Part shown: piece by piece, positions 17,341 through 24,117 of the stretch | How positions within the stretch are numbered: the stretch's first letter is position 1 | How the letters are laid out: the number at the start of each line of letters is the position of its first letter | Source of the DNA: a virus | Taxonomy: Duplodnaviria; Heunggongvirae; Uroviricota; Caudoviricetes | DNA: 35,494 bases | Direction: 5' to 3' (one strand) | IMG/VR virus record: IMGVR_UViG_2724679140_000015 | Made by a program: the position numbers and the translations under genes | The notes under the pieces: generated by a model | The model's database searches: none | Told to the model about the DNA's origin: nothing | What the model saw: the letters and a program-made list of their open reading frames with translations, nothing else

Positions 17341-18817
17341 GCAGACGCCCCCAGATATTTGCCACAAAGAGAATGCGGGCCAGCCGTTCCTGCAGATCGT
17401 CCGTGTTCATCTGAGGGTAGAGCTCCGCCAGTTCGCCCAGCAGCTCAGACGGGTTAACCCCGTTTTCGACCCGCTTGAACAGAGCTGCCAGGACGGATTC
17501 CAGCGTGCCAGTTAACACGCCTCCGTTCATCAGAATGTCCAGCGCGTCGTCAAGCTGCTGCTGAGCCTGAATATCGGCATCAATCGCCTCGGCAAATGAC
17601 AGCGGAAGCATGTTCTTCTCGCGTTCTGACGGTGGTGTCTCGTCAATATCGCCGTCCTGCAGCTGGTACTCCCGTTTGAAGTATTGCGAGGTGAAGACCA
17701 CACCAGCGCGGCTGAGTTTCTCGTCGCGGGTTGCCTGGATATCGTCGACCGTTCCCTGTTCCCACATCTTCCAGACGGGGCTGGCCACATCGCCAAAGTT
17801 CATCGATACCGCCATCCTGATGGCCTGATTCACCGCACTTTCCACGATATCTGCATCCGCATCGCGGATATCATCGGTGACCTCCAGTCCGGCCTGCGCG
17901 GAGGCGCGGTTACTGTTGGCCTCGGTGGTCTGGTTCTGCCCCAGCAGGGCGATGGAGATTTCACTGCGGGCAAGCGTGATCAGGTTCTGATAAATATCGC
18001 TGCTGTCGGCCTTGCCTGCGGCCTCCTTAATTTCAATGGATGAATCGTCAGGGATAGCGGCCACCGCGTCTTCCACCATTGCCTCCATGGAGTCCAGCAG
18101 CAGGTCAATCTCGCCCTGTGCGGTACCACGCGGATGCTTGCCGATAACCCACGGAGAGCCGTATTTCTCGGCAAAACGTACCCAGAACTTCATGCCGCCT
18201 TTTTTGAATGTCACGGGCCAGAAACACATCGACAGATCAGGGAAGCCATATGGGTTATCGTAGGTCGCATCCTGACGCGGTACCACGAACTTGTTCAGCG
18301 GTACCGGCTCACCTTCCAGCCCGGCGTCTTTAGCACGAAAGCGCAACAGGTTGTCGTTGTCGAACTGGAACCACTCAGGGGGTTTACCCACGATATCGGC
18401 AATGGCCCAGGATTTAACAGAGCGTCCCCACATGATCTCACAAGGTTGATACCCGTAGAGAACGGCGTCGGTCATCTCGCCGATGATGCGGGACAGATCC
18501 AGATCGTCAAGCATATCCCGGATGAAACTGAATACCCGCGCCGGGGCATGACCTCGTTCAAGGCCGCGCTCCAGTGATTTGACCGCCGCTTTACGCCTGC
18601 GGATGCAGCCGCCGACCAGCGGGTCGGTACGCAGCTCGCGATAGATACGTATATCCCGGCCCTGAGATTTCAGAATGGGGTCAGGGTTAGGCAGGTACAT
18701 CCCCAGCCCGAAAAAGTCGATGGAGCGGCTGCGCGAGGCAATCTGCGCGGTCAGTGATTTCTGAGACTCAGAAAAAGCAACAAATTCATCGGGTGAAACC
18801 CAGATACCCCTCGCCAT
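17321..18817 (-). CDS. portal protein (Mu gp29-like)
   Basis: 498-aa ORF directly after the large terminase. Confidence 0.7.
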   Translation of the reverse strand: MARGIWVSPDEFVAFSESQKSLTAQIASRSRSIDFFGLGMYLPNPDPILKSQGRDIRIYRELRTDPLVGGCIRRRKAAVKSLERGLERGHAPARVFSFIRDMLDDLDLSRIIGEMTDAVLYGYQPCEIMWGRSVKSWAIADIVGKPPEWFQFDNDNLLRFRAKDAGLEGEPVPLNKFVVPRQDATYDNPYGFPDLSMCFWPVTFKKGGMKFWVRFAEKYGSPWVIGKHPRGTAQGEIDLLLDSMEAMVEDAVAAIPDDSSIEIKEAAGKADSSDIYQNLITLARSEISIALLGQNQTTEANSNRASAQAGLEVTDDIRDADADIVESAVNQAIRMAVSMNFGDVASPVWKMWEQGTVDDIQATRDEKLSRAGVVFTSQYFKREYQLQDGDIDETPPSEREKNMLPLSFAEAIDADIQAQQQLDDALDILMNGGVLTGTLESVLAALFKRVENGVNPSELLGELAELYPQMNTDDLQERLARILFVANIWGRLHEHDNG

Positions 18818-20340
18818 CAGAATCCCTCCAGTATACGGGCCGCCTGACGACGTCGTCGTGAGCTTGCTTTCACCGGCCCTTTGTTAATTTCACGGCTGGC
18901 GAAATACGCCAGCGCCAGTGCGATGGCTGAATCCCCGTGGCGTTTACCACCATCAGCCTTTGCTTTTGAGCGTTGCTCCGGCACGCGGGGGACACCGTTC
19001 ACCACCTGAACGGCCCGCAGGTCATCCAGTGTGTCTTCATCTTTTGGTAAGTCCACCAGGTTACCGTCTTCCAGTGCAGCTTTGACCGGAGGCATATGTT
19101 CCCGGTACCAGCCTTCGGTTGGCATCACCTGCTGAACCCGGCTGGAGCCGTAGCGCTGCATGGCGTATTCAGCCAGATAGGCACCATTACCACGGGCATC
19201 AAACGCTGCACCCAGCAGACCGGGCAGTCCATCCATCAGATACCAGGTGATTTGCTCCTGCTGTCTGAACGGCACGTTACGCAGCTCCAGTACAAATGGC
19301 ACGCGTCGTACCAGGTTCTTCTCCTGCAGCAGGGGATAGTCCACCGACAAATCACCGCTGCGGCCAAAGTCGCGCCCCAGGAAAGAGCGGGCATCAGTGG
19401 GGAGTGCCTCCAGCAATGGTTTCAGATGCTCATCAAGCCAGTCCTGCGTCTCGCGGAAGCGAACCTCATCAGACAGCAGTTCATAACCTTCCTGACAGGT
19501 CAGACGCAATACCGGCGTATCAGCGGACATGCGGGACTCTATCAGGGCACGGGACAGCCAGGCACCGCCACCGTTGGCCGGAATACAGTCAAGCTCTTCG
19601 GATGCGCCGGCACCGTAGAATTTGTACACCGATGCCATCCAGGCCTGCTCGGATGCCTCCGACCATTCCTTCCCGGTGCGCAGACAGACGCGCCGGAACA
19701 GCCCCTCAGATACGGCTTCCCGGAAAGTGATGCGATGTACGCTGCCTCCCTGACGTCCGGTACGGATATCCCCGATAAGCGTATTGAACGGATTGTCGTC
19801 ACCGTTATGGGTGGAGATAACGCGTACCTTTCCCCCCCAGATAAGCATCGCCAGCGCCGCTTTCAGCAGTTCGTCCAGTTGCTCATGGAACGCCGCTTCG
19901 TCGATAACAATAATACCCTGACGGCCACGCAGGTTAGACGGGCGGCTGGAGAGCGCAACAATACGAAAGCCGGAGTCAGGAAATTTGATGGTGTAAGTCT
20001 TGATGTGTTTGTCGTCGTCGTCCTCTTCCCAGAATCCTTCTTCAATTTCACTGGCCGCATAGTTGAATGCCCGTGCCCACATCGCACACGCCTGAATGTA
20101 TTCGACGGTCATGTCCTGGTTATAGGCGATGTAATACACATTCATCCCGCCTGCTGGCGCAGAAGAGGCGGCGGTCAGTACGTTATCGGATGCCTCAGCC
20201 CATGTAATACCGGTACGACGGCTCTTTTCCATCACCTTAAGCGGAGAGGCATCTGCCACCCAGCGTTGCTGATAAGGCAGCAGCACCGGTGGGGCTGCAC
20301 ACGCTGTTGTGTCCGGGATATGCGAAGGGATGTTCATCAT
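18817..20340 (-). CDS. terminase large subunit (Mu gp28-like)
   Basis: 507-aa ORF; position between small terminase-like gene and portal. Confidence 0.7.
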   Translation of the reverse strand: MMNIPSHIPDTTACAAPPVLLPYQQRWVADASPLKVMEKSRRTGITWAEASDNVLTAASSAPAGGMNVYYIAYNQDMTVEYIQACAMWARAFNYAASEIEEGFWEEDDDDKHIKTYTIKFPDSGFRIVALSSRPSNLRGRQGIIVIDEAAFHEQLDELLKAALAMLIWGGKVRVISTHNGDDNPFNTLIGDIRTGRQGGSVHRITFREAVSEGLFRRVCLRTGKEWSEASEQAWMASVYKFYGAGASEELDCIPANGGGAWLSRALIESRMSADTPVLRLTCQEGYELLSDEVRFRETQDWLDEHLKPLLEALPTDARSFLGRDFGRSGDLSVDYPLLQEKNLVRRVPFVLELRNVPFRQQEQITWYLMDGLPGLLGAAFDARGNGAYLAEYAMQRYGSSRVQQVMPTEGWYREHMPPVKAALEDGNLVDLPKDEDTLDDLRAVQVVNGVPRVPEQRSKAKADGGKRHGDSAIALALAYFASREINKGPVKASSRRRRQAARILEGF

Positions 20341-20885
20341 GATGCCACTCCCAGAATTTCCCGTCGCAGTGCCTGTACAGCATCCGCAGACAGCCCGCCC
20401 TTACGGGCAATTTTCTCGGCAGCGGCGGCAGCACGTTCAACCCTCTCCCTGACTTCTGCCTGATAGCGCTTGAGGGTGACCGAGGCGCGGGTCAGTGTGG
20501 CGATATTTTTTGAAGCCGTTGCCAGCAGTTTTGCCCGGGCGAAGGGATCGTCATTTTCCCGCGACTCCTGCAGGCGCATCAGGATGTCCGTCATTTCGGT
20601 CTGGACGAGGGTTATCAGCCCGGCTGAACGGTCATCAGGATCGTCTCCGGCCTCCCGAGCAAGCAGACGTGCCGCCTCGGTTGCTGCCCGCACACGGGCC
20701 AGTTGCTGCTCCATTTTGTAGCCAAACCGCTGCAGGGAAGAGCGGGTGATGCTGTAACCCCTTTCCTTCAGCAGGCTTTCAAGCTCTGCATAGCCGGTGA
20801 AATTATTCTCCGTCAGTGCCCGCTCAATCCAGCGACGGACCTCCTTCGGCAGAGAATCAATGCTGCTGCGACGTCCCATAATCAC
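20337..20885 (-). CDS. small terminase-like DNA-binding protein (Mu gp27-like)
   Basis: 182-aa ORF overlapping the start of the large terminase gene. Confidence 0.5.
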   Translation of the reverse strand: MIMGRRSSIDSLPKEVRRWIERALTENNFTGYAELESLLKERGYSITRSSLQRFGYKMEQQLARVRAATEAARLLAREAGDDPDDRSAGLITLVQTEMTDILMRLQESRENDDPFARAKLLATASKNIATLTRASVTLKRYQAEVRERVERAAAAAEKIARKGGLSADAVQALRREILGVAS

Positions 20886-21193
20886 TCACTCCAGTATTTT
20901 TCCGGGCGGGCAATACCGGGGCTGCATTCCACGGTGTATTCCACAATATCCACCCCAAGGCGGCTCAGATCGGCAAACCAGTCACCGGACGGTCTCCTCT
21001 CCAGTTCCACCATTTTGCGATCTGCCAGGTAATCAAGCTCACGGCGCAGCTCCAGTTGCGTGGTGTCCGGGTAGATGGCGCGGGACACTTCCAGCAGCAA
21101 CGTCTCGCTGGCGGTGTAAGGGCGGGTTTTGTTCAGGGCAACCAGCAGACTCCAGCGCAGGGATTCGCGGCGTACCCGGGTAATATCGACCAT
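20882..21193 (-). CDS. hypothetical protein
   Basis: 103-aa ORF translationally coupled to neighbours. Confidence 0.35.
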   Translation of the reverse strand: MVDITRVRRESLRWSLLVALNKTRPYTASETLLLEVSRAIYPDTTQLELRRELDYLADRKMVELERRPSGDWFADLSRLGVDIVEYTVECSPGIARPEKYWSE

Positions 21194-21519
21194 TATTGAC
21201 CTCCGGTATTGCGGTACTGCTGTACCACTTCCAGTTTGTTGTAAAGCGCGTCCAGTTTGGCCTCGATAACTGTCTGGCCACGGATATAATCCTCGCGACG
21301 GACATAATTCAGCGGTAAATCCGCCTTAAATCGCATAAATTCTTTTTCCAGCTCGCCCCAGTTGGAGGCGGACTGCTGCAGTGACTGCTCAAGAGAGGCG
21401 AATCGTGCAGTCTGGCGTTCTTCCGCTTTACTGAACAGCCATTTGGCGAGCCCTCCCACAAACCCCATGAAGGTGAGCAGAAAACTCACCACCGTCCAGA
21501 ATTCAACCTGCAGTGTCAT
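21193..21519 (-). CDS. hypothetical membrane protein
   Basis: 108-aa ORF with N-terminal hydrophobic segment. Confidence 0.35.
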   Translation of the reverse strand: MTLQVEFWTVVSFLLTFMGFVGGLAKWLFSKAEERQTARFASLEQSLQQSASNWGELEKEFMRFKADLPLNYVRREDYIRGQTVIEAKLDALYNKLEVVQQYRNTGGQ

Positions 21520-22166
21520 TTCTGTAATCCTTCCCGTTCATTCAGCAGCGCGTTTATCTGGTTCCGCCAGCGACGACATTGCCCTGCGTTGTCGATGATA
21601 TTGGCGAGGACGTCACGCTGGGAGACACCCGAATTGCGTAACCGGGCGTCAGCGGTTTCAGGTTGCCCGGTCGCTGCGCCAGTGCCGGTGCCAGCGGCGG
21701 CAGTTGCGTCTGAATGACCGGTGTCGACGGATGCGTTGTCATATCCGAGTGCGGCGTTGTACTGGCGCACGAAACCGCGAGTAAACACGCACTCAATGGG
21801 ATGGCTCTTACCTTTTTCATCAATCCAGCGCTGTGTGACATCGTTAATTTGCCCCTGTAGTTGTTTGTTCCGGCTCTCCAGTTGAGCAATCTGCTCAAGG
21901 TAACTGGCTTCAGCCTGCTGCCCGGCGGCCACCTGCTCCTGATACCGTTTTGCCCATGCTCGCAACGCAGCGTTCTCAAGCATTGCCTGCTCCGTTTTGT
22001 ACGCGTCAAATGCTGACTGCAACTGACTGAGCGCGGTATCACCGTCACGCTTTGCAGAGTCATGACCACTTCTGTATCCCATGGCATACAGGCCGATCAG
22101 AAAGGCATTGATAAGAATGGCCAGAAGAATGCCGCGCCATGGCAGTTTTTTAACCAGATGCCACAC
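21516..22166 (-). CDS. candidate i-spanin (Rz-like)
   Basis: N-terminal transmembrane segment followed by coiled-coil-like region, immediately downstream of the endolysin; GTG start at 22166 preceded by GGAGG (ORF track extends to 22268). Confidence 0.4.
   Translation of the reverse strand: MWHLVKKLPWRGILLAILINAFLIGLYAMGYRSGHDSAKRDGDTALSQLQSAFDAYKTEQAMLENAALRAWAKRYQEQVAAGQQAEASYLEQIAQLESRNKQLQGQINDVTQRWIDEKGKSHPIECVFTRGFVRQYNAALGYDNASVDTGHSDATAAAGTGTGAATGQPETADARLRNSGVSQRDVLANIIDNAGQCRRWRNQINALLNEREGLQK
21554..21820 (-). CDS. candidate o-spanin (Rz1-like lipoprotein) embedded in the +1 frame of the i-spanin gene
   Basis: Internal Met followed by signal peptide ending in a lipobox-like LAVSC, then Pro-rich sequence; wholly inside 21516-22166. 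Confidence 0.4.
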   Translation of the reverse strand: MKKVRAIPLSACLLAVSCASTTPHSDMTTHPSTPVIQTQLPPLAPALAQRPGNLKPLTPGYAIRVSPSVTSSPISSTTQGNVVAGGTR

Positions 22167-22890
22167 AACTGCTGCCTCCCCATGTGAGATATCGCGGTGC
22201 CAGCTCACGCAGAATGCGTTGCGGATAATGACGGTTCTCCCGCCAGCTGGCCGCATTGCGTCCGGCATTCACCGTGGCGACATGACCAAACCAGCGGGTG
22301 CTGTCCAGACCTTTCTGTGATGCAAGCCGCCTGTCCCGTTGTACCCAGCCCAGACCACCGTTATAGCCCGACAGTGTCATGGCCATACGCTCGCAGTCGT
22401 TGGCGGCGCTGACGCGCTGCCACAGCCAGCGGTCATAGCTGACCAGCGCCCGGATAGCCCATGCAGGATTAAACGGCTCACGACTGCTCAGCATCGGTAT
22501 CAACTGGCTTATCCAGTCGGCAGTGGCAGGCATGAACTGCGCCAGTCCTTGAGCGCCAGCCGGTGAGACCGCATCAGGTCGCCAGCCGCTTTCCTGATGC
22601 AGTTGCGCGGCAAAGTCGGCCACCGGCGCAGACAGTCCCCATTCAAGCCGGGCATTACGGATCACATCATCGCGATACTGCAGCGCAGCCTGCGGAGGTT
22701 GTGCTGCGCATGCCTGGCTGAAAAAGCCGCCACACCAGAGCAATATTGCGACAAAGAATACCCATGCCATATGAACCAGAAAGGTCCCGGCGCGGACTGA
22801 CAGGCGTTCGGTTCTGATGAAGACCCGAAAGGCTTCGAAAGCCAGTTTCAGGGACATGCATACAATCCAGGTGATCTGCGGCCAGTTCAT
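22150..22890 (-). CDS. endolysin, lytic transglycosylase (SLT domain), possibly signal-anchored
   Basis: GLAQFMPATA motif typical of SLT domains; N-terminal hydrophobic stretch; alternative start at 22770. Confidence 0.65.
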   Translation of the reverse strand: MNWPQITWIVCMSLKLAFEAFRVFIRTERLSVRAGTFLVHMAWVFFVAILLWCGGFFSQACAAQPPQAALQYRDDVIRNARLEWGLSAPVADFAAQLHQESGWRPDAVSPAGAQGLAQFMPATADWISQLIPMLSSREPFNPAWAIRALVSYDRWLWQRVSAANDCERMAMTLSGYNGGLGWVQRDRRLASQKGLDSTRWFGHVATVNAGRNAASWRENRHYPQRILRELAPRYLTWGGSSCVASG

Positions 22891-22892
22891 GA

Positions 22893-23243
22893 TTAAAGCC
22901 CCATCGCAACAGCCAGGCAGACCGCTGCAACAATCAGTGCACGGCGGATTAACGCAGCAGAAAACACCAGGTGAAGGCCGGTCTGTACCGGGAAACGCCC
23001 TTCAGCCATCAGCCTGTCGTCATGTTTCAGGTACTGACCGGGACGGGCTTTGGGGAAGAGCGAACGGTCAAGCCAGTAACCCAGCACTGCTGCCAGCGTG
23101 ATGAGTGCCAGCTTGTAGATCACAACAGGCAGTTGCTGTGGTGAGACCAGAGCGATGGTGCCCAGCAACAGCACTGAGGTCAGCAGCCAGCCGCTGAGGC
23201 GAGGTTTTTTAACAGGGGGAATGAATGTTTTCAGGTTTTTCAT
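22893..23243 (-). CDS. putative holin (small membrane protein)
   Basis: Two to three predicted transmembrane segments; AAGGAG 6 nt upstream of ATG at 23243; immediately upstream of endolysin. Confidence 0.45.
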   Translation of the reverse strand: MKNLKTFIPPVKKPRLSGWLLTSVLLLGTIALVSPQQLPVVIYKLALITLAAVLGYWLDRSLFPKARPGQYLKHDDRLMAEGRFPVQTGLHLVFSAALIRRALIVAAVCLAVAMGL

Positions 23244-23373
23244 GTGTGTCTCCTTATCTGGTGGAGACAGCATCACAAATACAGGGCGCGAAGGATTTTA
23301 AAGCGCGTTAAGAGAGCCGGGGATACGGGATGTGCAGGATAAACGATGAATTATTCACAGAGGAGAATACGAT

Positions 23374-24117
23374 ATGACGCAGACACTGAATCCGGTCATC
23401 ACTGTCACCGTGTCCGGTCCTGTGGGCAGCGGTAAAAGTTACATATTGGCGCGGATAGAGGAAGTGGTGAAACAGGAATTCGGAAACAGCGTCATTGTCG
23501 ACGCCGCAGACGTGGACGGTGAGCGCCGTATGAGTGGGGGTGATCTGAGCACATGGCAGAAACCACGGGCAGGCACACTTATCCGACTGGAGGAATACAC
23601 AGAAAAAACTCCGATGTCATACAGCGAGGGATGCATTCTCCGGACGAATGCACTGCTGGATGTTATATGCCCCACAGGCCAGTACCCATGGACACTGCCC
23701 GATGCACTGCATGCCACTATTGCGGCACTGATGGCAGTTTACGATCAGGAGCTGCTCATGAAGGAGCTACGTAAACTCACTGGTCAGCCAACAGAATGTT
23801 TTTCGGCCCCGAAGTACGGGAAGCAGGAACACATCCCGGTGAACACAATCCCCGTTAACCAGCCTCCCCGGTTCTTCGACGAATACATTCTGACACCGGA
23901 AAATAAAGCTGAGCATGAAGTGATCAAAGAGGCGTTGTTCCGGGAAATCAGGAAGATTGCTGAAATGCAACTGGAGGGCGGGCTGGACAGAGTGATGGCG
24001 AGAGGAGAATGGGAATCGCTGTTTGAAAGAACTTCCCCGGAATTACTTCCCCTCGCACTGGCTATCGGGATTATGCAGACAGCGGATAAACCTCACTTAC
24101 GTTCATTAAACACGTAA
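23374..24117 (+). CDS. small P-loop NTPase/kinase-like protein, function unknown
   Basis: Walker A-like GPVGSGKSY near N-terminus; GAGGAG RBS 8 nt upstream of ATG. Confidence 0.5.
   Translation: MTQTLNPVITVTVSGPVGSGKSYILARIEEVVKQEFGNSVIVDAADVDGERRMSGGDLSTWQKPRAGTLIRLEEYTEKTPMSYSEGCILRTNALLDVICPTGQYPWTLPDALHATIAALMAVYDQELLMKELRKLTGQPTECFSAPKYGKQEHIPVNTIPVNQPPRFFDEYILTPENKAEHEVIKEALFREIRKIAEMQLEGGLDRVMARGEWESLFERTSPELLPLALAIGIMQTADKPHLRSLNT

Follow-up and report, generated by a model that had tools for sequence, protein, structure and literature searches.

How can a single 651-nt stretch of a prophage lysis cassette encode both subunits of a spanin, with the gene for one lying wholly inside the gene for the other? 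The question arises on the minus strand of a 35,494-nt caudoviricete sequence (IMG/VR record IMGVR_UViG_2724679140_000015), the whole of which we refer to as the window. Here the initial annotation had described a candidate i-spanin gene with an 88-aa ORF in its +1 frame, and we find the same coordinates and the same frame (Table 1). We conclude that the locus is very probably a spanin module, belonging to the lysis cassette of an enterobacterial prophage that resembles BcepMu (Mu-type, transposable), and that two proteins are read from its 651 nt.

The minus strand of the window carries a BcepMu-type lysis cassette that runs from holin to SLT endolysin to the 216-aa i-spanin with its embedded ORF; beyond it come a gp25-like membrane protein, a gp26-like protein, TerS and TerL. 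The genes with Holin_2-3 and SLT domains lie directly upstream of the spanin pair and on the same strand, a lysis-cassette location. In relatives the holin is labelled ‘putative holin’, and its RefSeq homologues are 351 nt long, which would place the start at about 23243 here. The endolysin has an N-terminal hydrophobic segment and occupies the cassette position of BcepMu gp22. Its stop and the i-spanin start overlap by 17 nt, and the ATG of the next gene overlaps the i-spanin stop (ATGA at 21516–21519).

That next gene (21193–21519) encodes a 108-aa protein with a single transmembrane domain (TMD) and, by its translation, no Cys. BLASTP of this protein and of the 103-aa downstream protein against Mu gp25 (releasin) and Mu gp26 gave no alignment. 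The 108-aa protein is 50% identical to its equivalent, gp25, in BcepMu, whereas the spanins of prophage and BcepMu have drifted to 30% identity. It is conceivable, if rather unlikely, that it is a further component of the lysis module, either a releasin-like protein (outside DUF2730) acting on the membrane-tethered SLT endolysin or a regulator of the spanin complex.

Table 1. Features of the lysis cassette and the embedded spanin pair, with positions in the window.
Feature	Position	Strand	Basis or remark
Holin, first cassette gene	22893..23276	(-)	Longest ORF, 127 aa; Pfam Holin_2-3 1.5e-41; phrog_1528 holin 1.8e-54
Endolysin, lytic transglycosylase (SLT domain)	22150..22890	(-)	Pfam SLT 1.2e-14, residues 97-193; phrog_669 endolysin 4.1e-69
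Shine-Dalgarno-like GGGAGG	22175..22180	(-)	8-nt spacer to i-spanin GTG; read from sequence
Candidate i-spanin (Rz equivalent), 216 aa, GTG start	21516..22166	(-)	phrog_1403 ‘Rz-like spanin’ 8.5e-90
Predicted i-spanin N-terminal transmembrane segment, residues ~10-30, PWRGILLAILINAFLIGLYAM	22077..22139	(-)	K6 and K7 on N-terminal side
Upstream candidate o-spanin initiation region	21839..21856	(-)	AGGGG 21852-21856, 10-nt spacer, ATG 21839-21841
Candidate o-spanin (Rz1 equivalent), 88-aa precursor, +1 frame, inside i-spanin	21554..21820	(-)	Translation, conservation, hhalign to BcepMu gp24
Lipobox A-V-S-C, o-spanin residues 15-18	21767..21778	(-)	Cys18 is the predicted lipidated first mature residue; +2 is Ala
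Pro-rich conserved core of mature o-spanin, residues 40-62, LPPLAPALAQRPGNLKPLTPGYA	21635..21703	(-)	Opposite i-spanin Ala/Gly/Thr-rich linker
i-spanin C-terminal helix region, residues ~176-215, LRNSGVSQRDVLANIIDNAGQCRRWRNQINALLNEREG	21519..21641	(-)	Invariant Cys197 inside; invariant columns in alignment A1

The outer frame is predicted to encode an inner-membrane protein with a single N-terminal TMD: its sole cluster of 19-residue Kyte–Doolittle windows above 1.6 peaks at 2.16 over residues 12–30. Homologues have the same 651-nt extent in RefSeq and GenBank annotation, and some in RefSeq are named ‘lysis system spanin subunit’. The AF2 model gave a helix at residues 10–118, a low-confidence non-helical linker at 141–170 and helices at 169–179 and 183–215; as its confidence was low (mean pLDDT 58.5, pTM 0.29), its secondary structure alone was used. 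The linker, rich in Ala, Gly and Thr, lies opposite the Pro-rich core of the embedded protein. Cys126 and Cys197 are invariant in the i-spanin alignment (A1), and no Cys precedes residue 126. Pfam (E <= 0.1) and NCBIfam (0.01) scans of both proteins returned no relevant family, lambda-type Rz and Rz1 included. The features of a unimolecular spanin (T1 gp11 type) were likewise not seen, the lipoprotein having no C-terminal hydrophobic segment and the TMD protein no Cys in its first 125 residues.

The embedded ORF occupies nt 346–612 of the 651-nt i-spanin gene (0.53–0.94 of its length) and stops 38 nt before the i-spanin stop. A second in-frame ATG at 21841 is conserved and would give a 95-aa precursor with an unchanged mature protein; it is invariant in 58/58 unique genes, and 99 of the 102 loci that keep the ORF have an ATG at this position. 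Only weak Shine–Dalgarno motifs precede the embedded gene, either AGGGG with a spacing of 10 nt or TGGA with one of 3 nt. The precursor begins with a lipoprotein signal, MKKVRAIPLSACLLAVS followed by the Cys, and continues into a Pro/Ser/Thr-rich mature part of 71 aa (11 Pro, or 15%; 44% Pro+Ser+Thr). The initial annotation had read a signal peptide, a lipobox-like LAVSC and a Pro-rich mature region here, and the signal MKKVRAIPLSACLLAVSC passes a PROSITE PS51257-type rule of our own coding: there is a K/R within the first seven residues, the ten residues before the Cys are uncharged, the lipobox is A-V-S-C and the Cys is at position 18. The +2 residue is not Asp.

Across the 66 unique o-spanin sequences, the lipobox varies among AVSC, VASC, LVSC, AASC, VVSC, LASC and LSAC, with A, S, V or G at +2 and never D; residues C18, S17, L13, L14 and C12 are invariant in alignment A2. 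The PROSITE rule allows the Ala at −3 of the window’s lipobox, which the strict consensus [LVI][ASTVI][GAS]C (PMC6139136) does not; other members carry the canonical VASC or LVSC. The upstream Cys12, in ‘LSAC’, fits the strict consensus, although the h-region would then be only six residues long. In 59/66 sequences the mature protein has no further Cys.

Is this putative lipoprotein the partner of the i-spanin? It could instead be a genuine lipoprotein of another kind, acting for example in superinfection exclusion, receptor blocking or lysis timing, with the outer membrane disrupted by other means. The embedded protein matched nothing in Pfam, PHROGs or NCBIfam (BcepMu gp24 itself has no PHROGs match), its mature 71 aa exceed the 40 aa of mature lambda Rz1 (PMC6139136) and it lacks a periplasmic Cys. 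We nevertheless judge such a role very unlikely. The ORF sits within an Rz-like i-spanin gene, right after the endolysin, and its product shares homology with the protein annotated as Rz1 in BcepMu (see below). Its placement and its Pro-rich, unstructured composition match what is usual for embedded o-spanins: in about 70% of such pairs the o-spanin runs from 0.4–0.5 L to 0.9–1 L, where L is the length of the i-spanin gene (Kongari et al. 2018, PMC6139136). The cassette offers no other lipoprotein candidate, the 108-aa protein having no Cys and the i-spanin having its first Cys at residue 126, and in the established model an i-spanin without an o-spanin partner is non-functional. The pair also has the periplasmic Cys found in 507/528 two-component spanins, which carry at least one (PMC6139136); here they are C126 and C197 of the i-spanin.

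The o-spanin reading presupposes that the +1 frame is translated, and the frame could instead be a non-coding by-product, left open by the Ala/Gly/Thr/Gln-rich composition of the i-spanin and carrying a lipobox by chance. In 20,000 synonymous-codon resamplings of the i-spanin gene, a +1 ATG ORF of at least 88 codons arose in 32%, so the openness of this frame alone is no test of significance. A loose lipobox rule matched 14 distinct ORFs in the six frames of the window, 13 besides the embedded one, and we therefore rejected the lipobox pattern as sufficient evidence; the embedded ORF has the most hydrophobic h-region of these (Kyte–Doolittle 2.07). These results, and the weak Shine–Dalgarno motifs, speak for a by-product. 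A lipoprotein-like ORF, however, appeared in only 1% of the 20,000 resamplings, and in 0/28 alternative frames of 14 other window genes.

The initial annotation had named two findings that would overturn its proposal, loss of the embedded frame in related phages and lack of a predicted lipoprotein signal; neither was seen, and it is conservation across relatives that provides the decisive evidence that the ORF is beyond chance. Protein searches with the o-spanin (5.8 billion clusters and 1.84 billion representatives) found no correctly called copy: the 6 and 11 hits comprised 13 distinct proteins, of which all 12 inspected were frameshift or assembly chimeras, and the remaining one was a 1068-aa protein with no matched stretch given. 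As such hits are uninformative on conservation, DNA loci were used instead. They came from Escherichia, Klebsiella, Pantoea, Erwinia, Serratia, Brenneria, Pectobacterium, Salmonella, Citrobacter and Burkholderia. A +1-frame lipobox ORF was kept in 102/105 related loci, with i-spanin identities from 94% down to 30% and 66 distinct o-spanin sequences, and never occurred in the +2 frame. The three loci without it are decayed prophages in which the i-spanin is also truncated or carries a nonsense codon. In the decayed Mixta copy, GTG has become GTA at i-spanin Val133, which turns o-spanin Cys18 into Tyr and leaves the i-spanin residue as it was. Not one stop interrupts the embedded frame in 58/58 unique genes. 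A seemingly ‘overlapped’ member (L009/L090) was considered as a transition between architectures and rejected; in this insect symbiont the i-spanin is cut short by a nonsense mutation at W200.

Purifying selection acts on both reading frames, with the labour divided along the overlap. Synonymous diversity in the i-spanin drops from 0.280 outside the overlap to 0.105 within it (Mann–Whitney p = 2.3e-10), and third-position diversity falls likewise from 0.325 to 0.107 (p = 2.4e-12). At i-spanin codons 151–170, variation shifts to the wobble position of the o-frame, with diversity of 0.24–0.30 at position 1 against 0.04–0.05 at position 3. Over o-spanin residues 34–66, amino-acid identity is higher in the o-frame (0.86–0.92) than in the i-frame (0.67–0.79); in the C-terminal helix region of the i-spanin the order is reversed (i-frame 0.82–0.94, o-frame 0.59–0.86). 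The overlap is a clean ‘time-share’, in which the o-spanin core lies opposite the disordered i-spanin linker and the i-spanin C-terminal helix lies opposite the variable o-spanin tail. It could be from this natural pattern that the functional segments of the two subunits are mapped.

A non-coding by-product is hard to reconcile with these data: synonymous sites are suppressed about three-fold exactly in the overlap, wobble moves to the +1 frame, one stretch is better conserved in the o-frame than in the i-frame, and the ORF persists in 66 distinct sequences down to 30% i-spanin identity without ever appearing in +2. We consider it scarcely credible. Equally implausible is a constraint on the nucleic acid itself, through a structure in the mRNA or through coupled translation of the downstream gene. 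The i-spanin stop and the next start do overlap, and the suppression does reach slightly upstream of the embedded ATG at 21820 (i-spanin codons 101–115, with the drop beginning at 101–110), but the conserved ATG at 21841 with its AGGGG accounts for that reach, and a structural RNA would not produce codon-periodic wobble on the +1 frame, keep that frame free of stops in every unique gene or preserve a signal peptide and lipobox across 30–94% identity.

Together, these results lead us, with high confidence, to assign the locus as an embedded two-component spanin of Rz/Rz1 type, a function that we infer from sequence features, homology and synteny. The initial annotation’s embedded spanin pair following the endolysin is in this way upheld, both by the phrog_1403 match and by homology and synteny to BcepMu gp23/gp24. 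Predictions that go with it are that the o-spanin is lipidated and localised as described below, that the two subunits form a complex, that the i-spanin dimerises through disulfides and that the membranes fuse. The i-spanin would be anchored in the inner membrane by its TM helix and extend into the periplasm as two helices, one long and one C-terminal, joined by a flexible Ala/Gly/Thr linker. The 88-aa (or 95-aa) prolipoprotein would be exported by Sec, lipidated at Cys18 and cut by signal peptidase II. As the +2 residue is Ala, not Asp, the resulting o-spanin of 71 aa, rich in Pro, Ser and Thr and largely without structure, would then be expected to be sorted by Lol to the outer membrane, in its inner leaflet. 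By analogy with lambda Rz–Rz1, the C-terminal parts of the two subunits may bind across the periplasm in a complex restrained by the peptidoglycan meshwork; after the holin and SLT endolysin have acted, the complex would collapse and fuse the inner and outer membranes, removing the last barrier to virion release.

Since lambda, the embedded Rz/Rz1 spanin has been a textbook arrangement. That in the window is real but ordinary for phage lysis, and its family is already catalogued; the one novelty is the missing annotation of the o-spanin gene in this lineage. The cassette is present in 637/5,426 complete E. coli genomes (~12%), and the o-spanin gene was absent from 4/4 annotated records examined (two phage GenBank records and two RefSeq E. 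coli genomes), while the i-spanin carries the wrong label, ‘lipoprotein’ in some cases and ‘hypothetical protein’ in others. The practical value of the finding is in annotation, and biologically it adds little. The 66-sequence alignment and the frame-by-frame constraint map could, in addition, steer mutagenesis of the segments through which spanins interact.

Among known systems, lambda offers the model for the architecture. There too Rz1, a Pro-rich outer-membrane lipoprotein, is encoded in the +1 frame inside Rz, and Rz combines a TMD at its N terminus with a periplasmic domain that is helical. The window pair shares the embedding and the Pro-rich character, the TMD and the outer-membrane lipoprotein are predicted for it, and helices make up much of the low-confidence AF2 model of its i-spanin. 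The window proteins are longer, the i-spanin having 216 aa against the 153 aa of lambda Rz, and the mature o-spanin also exceeding its counterpart. In both phages the spanin genes close the lysis cassette, and periplasmic Cys are available for homotypic disulfides (PMC6139136). All of these lie in the i-spanin of the window pair, whereas lambda Rz1 has C29. The two systems have no detectable sequence relationship, with no Pfam match at E <= 0.1 for either window protein; judged from its sequence, the window pair would work like lambda Rz/Rz1 and yet stands outside those sequence families.

Mu gp23/gp23.1 (Mu_55) resembles the window pair in belonging to a transposable phage and in gene context: its spanins follow the endolysin and precede a small membrane protein, gp26, TerS and TerL. 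The Mu pair is overlapped and not embedded, however, with an o-spanin that runs past the i-spanin stop; the Mu i-spanin, at 128 aa, is far shorter, Mu has a SAR muramidase as its endolysin in place of an SLT enzyme, and no sequence similarity was seen between the gp25 and gp26 equivalents of Mu and the window.

The closest parallel is BcepMu, in which gp23 is annotated as Rz and gp24 as ‘Rz1, out of frame, embedded proline-rich protein’; we know of no experimental evidence for either. A tblastn search of a phage collection with the window i-spanin (E <= 1e-3) did not retrieve BcepMu, so the link needed direct pairwise and profile comparison. The i-spanin aligned with gp23 by hhalign at 98.2% probability (E 5.4e-14, 164 columns) and by BLASTP at 30% identity (E 2e-9), and both match phrog_1403 (5.5e-55 for gp23). 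The o-spanin aligned with gp24 at 97.1% probability (E 6.6e-11), with the lipobox Cys and an RP..PL.PGYA motif in register, and by BLASTP at 39% identity over 62 aa (E 1e-5), a similarity that is not fully independent of that in the i-frame, as the two share their DNA.

The two systems differ in host (Enterobacterales for the window lineage, Burkholderia for BcepMu) and in their Cys residues: in BcepMu the o-spanin has the lipobox LSAC and one more periplasmic Cys, where that of the window has AVSC and no extra Cys, and the second invariant Cys of the window i-spanin, C197, is absent at that site in BcepMu. BcepMu and phiE255 are listed as one embedded two-component spanin family (Kongari et al. 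2018, PMC6139136); at ~30–39% identity the window pair might, by our own estimate, form a separate cluster in that survey. The motifs CVFT.GFVR and SGV.Q.D.LA in the i-spanins and RP....PL.PGYA in the o-spanins are common to both phages, and the Pro-rich core of the window o-spanin is matched in BcepMu gp24 by RRPAPMTPLIPGYA. The gene order of BcepMu gp21–gp28 (GenBank AY539836) is identical to that of the window module, and in both the o-spanin lies in the +1 frame at nearly the same place, 0.53–0.94 L in the window and 0.51–0.94 L in BcepMu (Kongari et al. 2018, PMC6139136).

The initial annotation read this locus as an embedded Rz/Rz1-like spanin pair, and its coordinates for the Rz-equivalent gene (hereafter i-spanin) and the embedded Rz1-equivalent ORF (o-spanin) are exact. 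The i-spanin gene starts at a GTG (22166), 8 nt 3′ of GGGAGG, and its homologues in RefSeq and GenBank are annotated with the identical 651-nt extent. The embedded ORF, which translates as MKKVRAIPLSACLLAVSCASTTPHSDMTTHPSTPVIQTQLPPLAPALAQRPGNLKPLTPGYAIRVSPSVTSSPISSTTQGNVVAGGTR, starts 346 nt into i-spanin, placing it in the +1 frame, and stops 38 nt ahead of the i-spanin stop, so that it is fully embedded, at 0.53–0.94 of the i-spanin gene length (L). Its N-terminus passes a PROSITE PS51257-type rule, as expected for the lipoprotein signal first proposed, with a positively charged n-region (K2, K3, R5), an uncharged h-region (AIPLSACLLAVS) and an A-V-S-C lipobox whose Cys is residue 18; after cleavage the protein would have 71 aa (11 Pro, 44% Pro+Ser+Thr) and is indeed Pro-rich. 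A second invariant cysteine, C12 in ‘LSAC’, matches the strict lipobox consensus. As lipidation at C12 would leave a 6-residue h-region, C18 is predicted to be the likelier site.

Lysis-to-terminase genes and neighbouring ORFs of the window.
Feature	Coordinates	Strand	Evidence or position
247-aa ORF	23374–24117	+	divergent, directly upstream of lysis cassette
Holin	22893–23276	−	Pfam Holin_2-3, 1.5e-41; phrog_1528
Lytic transglycosylase endolysin	22150–22890	−	SLT domain, 1.2e-14; phrog_669
i-spanin, 216 aa	21516–22166	−	phrog_1403 ‘Rz-like spanin’, 8.5e-90
o-spanin, 88 aa	21554–21820	−	embedded in i-spanin
108-aa single-TMD protein	21193–21519	−	next after i-spanin
103-aa protein, then small terminase		−	after 108-aa gene
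Large terminase	18817–20340	−	after small terminase
455-aa ORF	19096–20463	+	antisense to large terminase gene

Two conserved ATGs, both in frame, could start o-spanin. That at 21841 yields a 95-aa precursor and has the better Shine–Dalgarno-like motif (AGGGG, 10 nt upstream; 21839–21856, −), while that at 21820 yields the 88-aa precursor and has only TGGA 3 nt upstream (21818–21827, −). Both are present in 91 of 102 loci, the upstream ATG alone in 8 and the downstream alone in 3. Because those 8 loci have only the upstream ATG, the start originally chosen, 21820, may not be the one used. Suppression of synonymous variation in i-spanin sets in by codons 101–110, which fits an initiation region there. 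The mature o-spanin is identical whichever ATG starts translation.

An open embedded ORF does not by itself exceed chance. When i-spanin was resampled 20,000 times with synonymous codons drawn according to codon usage in the window, 32% of resamplings contained a +1 ORF that began with ATG and reached 88 codons or more, and only 1% a lipoprotein-like +1 ORF. No lipoprotein-like ORF was found in 28 alternative frames of 14 other window genes. A loose lipobox rule matched 14 distinct ORFs across the six frames of the window, among which o-spanin has the most hydrophobic h-region. The comparative test is therefore decisive.

We compared 105 loci: 21 from species-representative genomes, 80 from viral contigs with an i-spanin alignment, those of the phages PhiKM, KP12 and BcepMu, and that of the window; i-spanin identity to the window ranged from 94% down to 30%. 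The embedded frame is conserved in these relatives: 102 of the 105 loci keep, at the same place in the +1 frame, a start codon followed by an n-region with K/R, an h-region free of charge and the lipobox Cys, and none has a comparable ORF in the +2 frame. Among 66 distinct o-spanin sequences, the lipoboxes were AVSC (46), VASC (7), LVSC (6), AASC (4), VVSC (1), LASC (1) and LSAC (1). After the Cys comes A, S, V or G in every sequence and Asp in none, from which sorting of o-spanin to the outer membrane by the Lol pathway is expected. A family-wide alignment of 12 sequences has C12, L13, L14, S17, C18, T21, T22, P34, P41, P42, L47, R50, L57, P59 and Y61 invariant.

All three loci without the embedded ORF are decayed prophages. 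In the Mixta mediterraneensis copy (two records, L012 and L092), unrelated DNA replaces the 3′ end of both genes and the o-spanin lipobox Cys has become Tyr; in the Ca. Symbiopectobacterium copy (L024), i-spanin has a nonsense codon at a conserved Cys and the h-region of o-spanin has gained a Glu. The architecture in Candidatus Erwinia dacicola (L009/L090) is only apparently ‘overlapped’, owing to a nonsense mutation at i-spanin W200; its o-frame is intact. Ca. Symbiopectobacterium and Ca. Erwinia dacicola are both symbionts.

Selection on the two frames was assessed by aligning, codon by codon, 58 unique i-spanin genes (at least 69% identity), none of which has a stop codon in the embedded frame. 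Synonymous diversity fell from 0.280 in codons 2–115 to 0.105 in the overlap (codons 116–204; Mann–Whitney p = 2.3e-10), and third-position nucleotide diversity from 0.325 outside to 0.107 within it (p = 2.4e-12). Across codons 151–170, variability is highest at i-spanin position 1 (0.24–0.30), where the embedded frame has its wobble, and position 3, which is embedded codon position 2, is nearly fixed (0.04–0.05); this inverted wobble is a signature of purifying selection on the +1 frame. The overlap shows a division of labour along its length. Both frames are nearly invariant over the signal peptide and lipobox (0.92–0.99). Over o-spanin residues 34–66 (PVIQTQLPPLAPALAQRPGNLKPLTPGYAIRVS), amino-acid identity is 0.86–0.92 in the o-frame versus 0.67–0.79 in the i-frame, which there encodes an Ala/Gly/Thr-rich linker; opposite residues 67–88, conservation is higher in the C-terminal helix of i-spanin than in the o-frame (0.82–0.94 versus 0.59–0.86). 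From this constraint map, we would expect the functional core of o-spanin at residues 40–62 and that of the i-spanin C-terminus at residues 176–215.

In public records, i-spanin is a ‘putative lipoprotein’ in PhiKM (locus L001, 632–1282) and KP12 (L002, 2915–3568), and RefSeq E. coli genomes call it ‘lysis system spanin subunit’, ‘lipoprotein’ or ‘hypothetical protein’; the copy at locus L106 (667–1317), where the embedded gene likewise lacks annotation, is among those labelled ‘putative lipoprotein’ or ‘lipoprotein’. That label does not suit i-spanin, as the window copy has no Cys before residue 126; residues 1–125 of 15 aligned relatives likewise have none. The embedded gene is unannotated in all four records inspected (PhiKM, KP12 and two RefSeq E. 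coli genomes). Across 5.8 billion protein clusters, word-index searching gave 6 o-spanin matches; exhaustive HMMER searching of 1.84 billion representatives gave 11. Of the 13 distinct proteins (P0001–P0006 and P0127–P0133), the 12 inspected were all chimeras, presumably frameshift or assembly errors, fusing the o-frame to the i-spanin N-terminus, small terminase or other sequence; neither search turned up a correctly called o-spanin of this family.

The lysis-to-terminase genes (23276 down to 18817) are all encoded on the minus strand. At the DNA level, the window shares 97% identity with Escherichia phage PhiKM, placed in Bcepmuvirus by GenBank, and 88–89% with the phages KP12 (Klebsiella) and Phi06_2974 B (Escherichia), and the cassette occurs in 637 of 5,426 complete E. 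coli genomes. Several neighbours merit comment. The SLT endolysin has a hydrophobic stretch (FLVHMAWVFFVAILLWCGGFFSQACAAQ, residues ~37–63) N-terminal to its catalytic domain, serving either as a signal peptide that is cleaved (A-C-A|A) or as a signal-anchor/SAR domain, a distinction that decides whether the holin is a pinholin-type trigger; as ~36 aa precede this stretch, the endolysin start codon is uncertain. The ATG of the 108-aa gene overlaps the i-spanin stop (ATGA). Its product has one N-terminal TMD and no Cys; its phrog_462 label, ‘lipoprotein’, cannot be literal. It is 50% identical to BcepMu gp25, the spanins being much less conserved (30%). Phage Mu gp25 ‘releasin’ occupies the equivalent cassette position (PMC9239132); BLASTP shows no similarity between Mu gp25 and the 108-aa protein, which has no Pfam match either and may be an additional lysis-cassette component. 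The divergent 247-aa ORF is a ‘hypothetical protein’ in PhiKM, and KP12 carries other genes there; the early region and the lysis genes may be separated here by a variable or moron-like slot. The 455-aa antisense ORF is probably a compositional artefact of the opposite coding strand.

Our proposed mechanism follows the established spanin model, with topology at prediction level. A single N-terminal TMD (residues ~10–30) would anchor i-spanin in the inner membrane, from which a long helix is predicted to project into the periplasm; the AF2 model has helices at 10–118 and 183–215 and a low-confidence linker at 141–170 (mean pLDDT only 58.5). i-Spanin homodimers are probably disulfide-linked via C126 and/or C197. 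o-Spanin would be lipidated at Cys18 and moved to the outer-membrane inner leaflet, and the C-terminal parts of both subunits would bind, forming a complex that spans the periplasm. Once the holin triggers and the SLT endolysin clears the peptidoglycan meshwork, these complexes would be able to collapse, fusing the inner membrane with the outer.

The closest annotated counterpart is in Burkholderia phage BcepMu, whose GenBank record lists gp21 holin, gp22 lytic transglycosylase, gp23 Rz, gp24 ‘Rz1, out of frame, embedded proline-rich protein’, gp25 inner membrane protein, gp26, gp27 (TerS) and gp28 (TerL), a gene order identical to that of the window. i-Spanin and gp23 (30% identity, E 2e-9; profile probability 98.2%, E 5.4e-14) both fall in phrog_1403. 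o-Spanin matches gp24 (39% identity, E 1e-5; profile probability 97.1%, E 6.6e-11), and in the profile alignment the lipobox Cys and an RP....PL.PGYA motif are in register. As both frames are read from one stretch of DNA, these homologies are not independent of each other, yet the o-frame match peaks precisely where the i-frame alignment is poor and broken by gaps. These similarities indicate a distant homologue of the BcepMu Rz/Rz1 pair. Conservation, frame-specific constraint and this homology together uphold the original reading of the embedded pair, which is real but an ordinary example of an established kind. The pair is useful for annotation and as a clean case of dual-frame constraint; it brings no new biology.

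In a published survey (Kongari et al. 2018, PMC6139136), BcepMu and phiE255 form an embedded two-component spanin family, with the BcepMu o-spanin at 0.51–0.94 L in the +1 frame; ~70% of embedded o-spanins extend from 0.4–0.5 L to 0.9–1 L, and at least one periplasmic Cys occurs in 507 of 528 two-component systems. The placement of the window o-spanin fits the first of these patterns and the invariant C126 and C197 of i-spanin fit the second; beyond its lipobox Cys, mature o-spanin contains none. The lambda-type Pfam families and the NCBIfam models gave no match to either protein. Given the lack of lambda-type Pfam matches, we assign the pair by sequence to the BcepMu family and not to that of lambda, though its predicted working is lambda Rz/Rz1-like. 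The phage Mu spanins differ again, forming an overlapped and far shorter pair, whereas that of the window is embedded.
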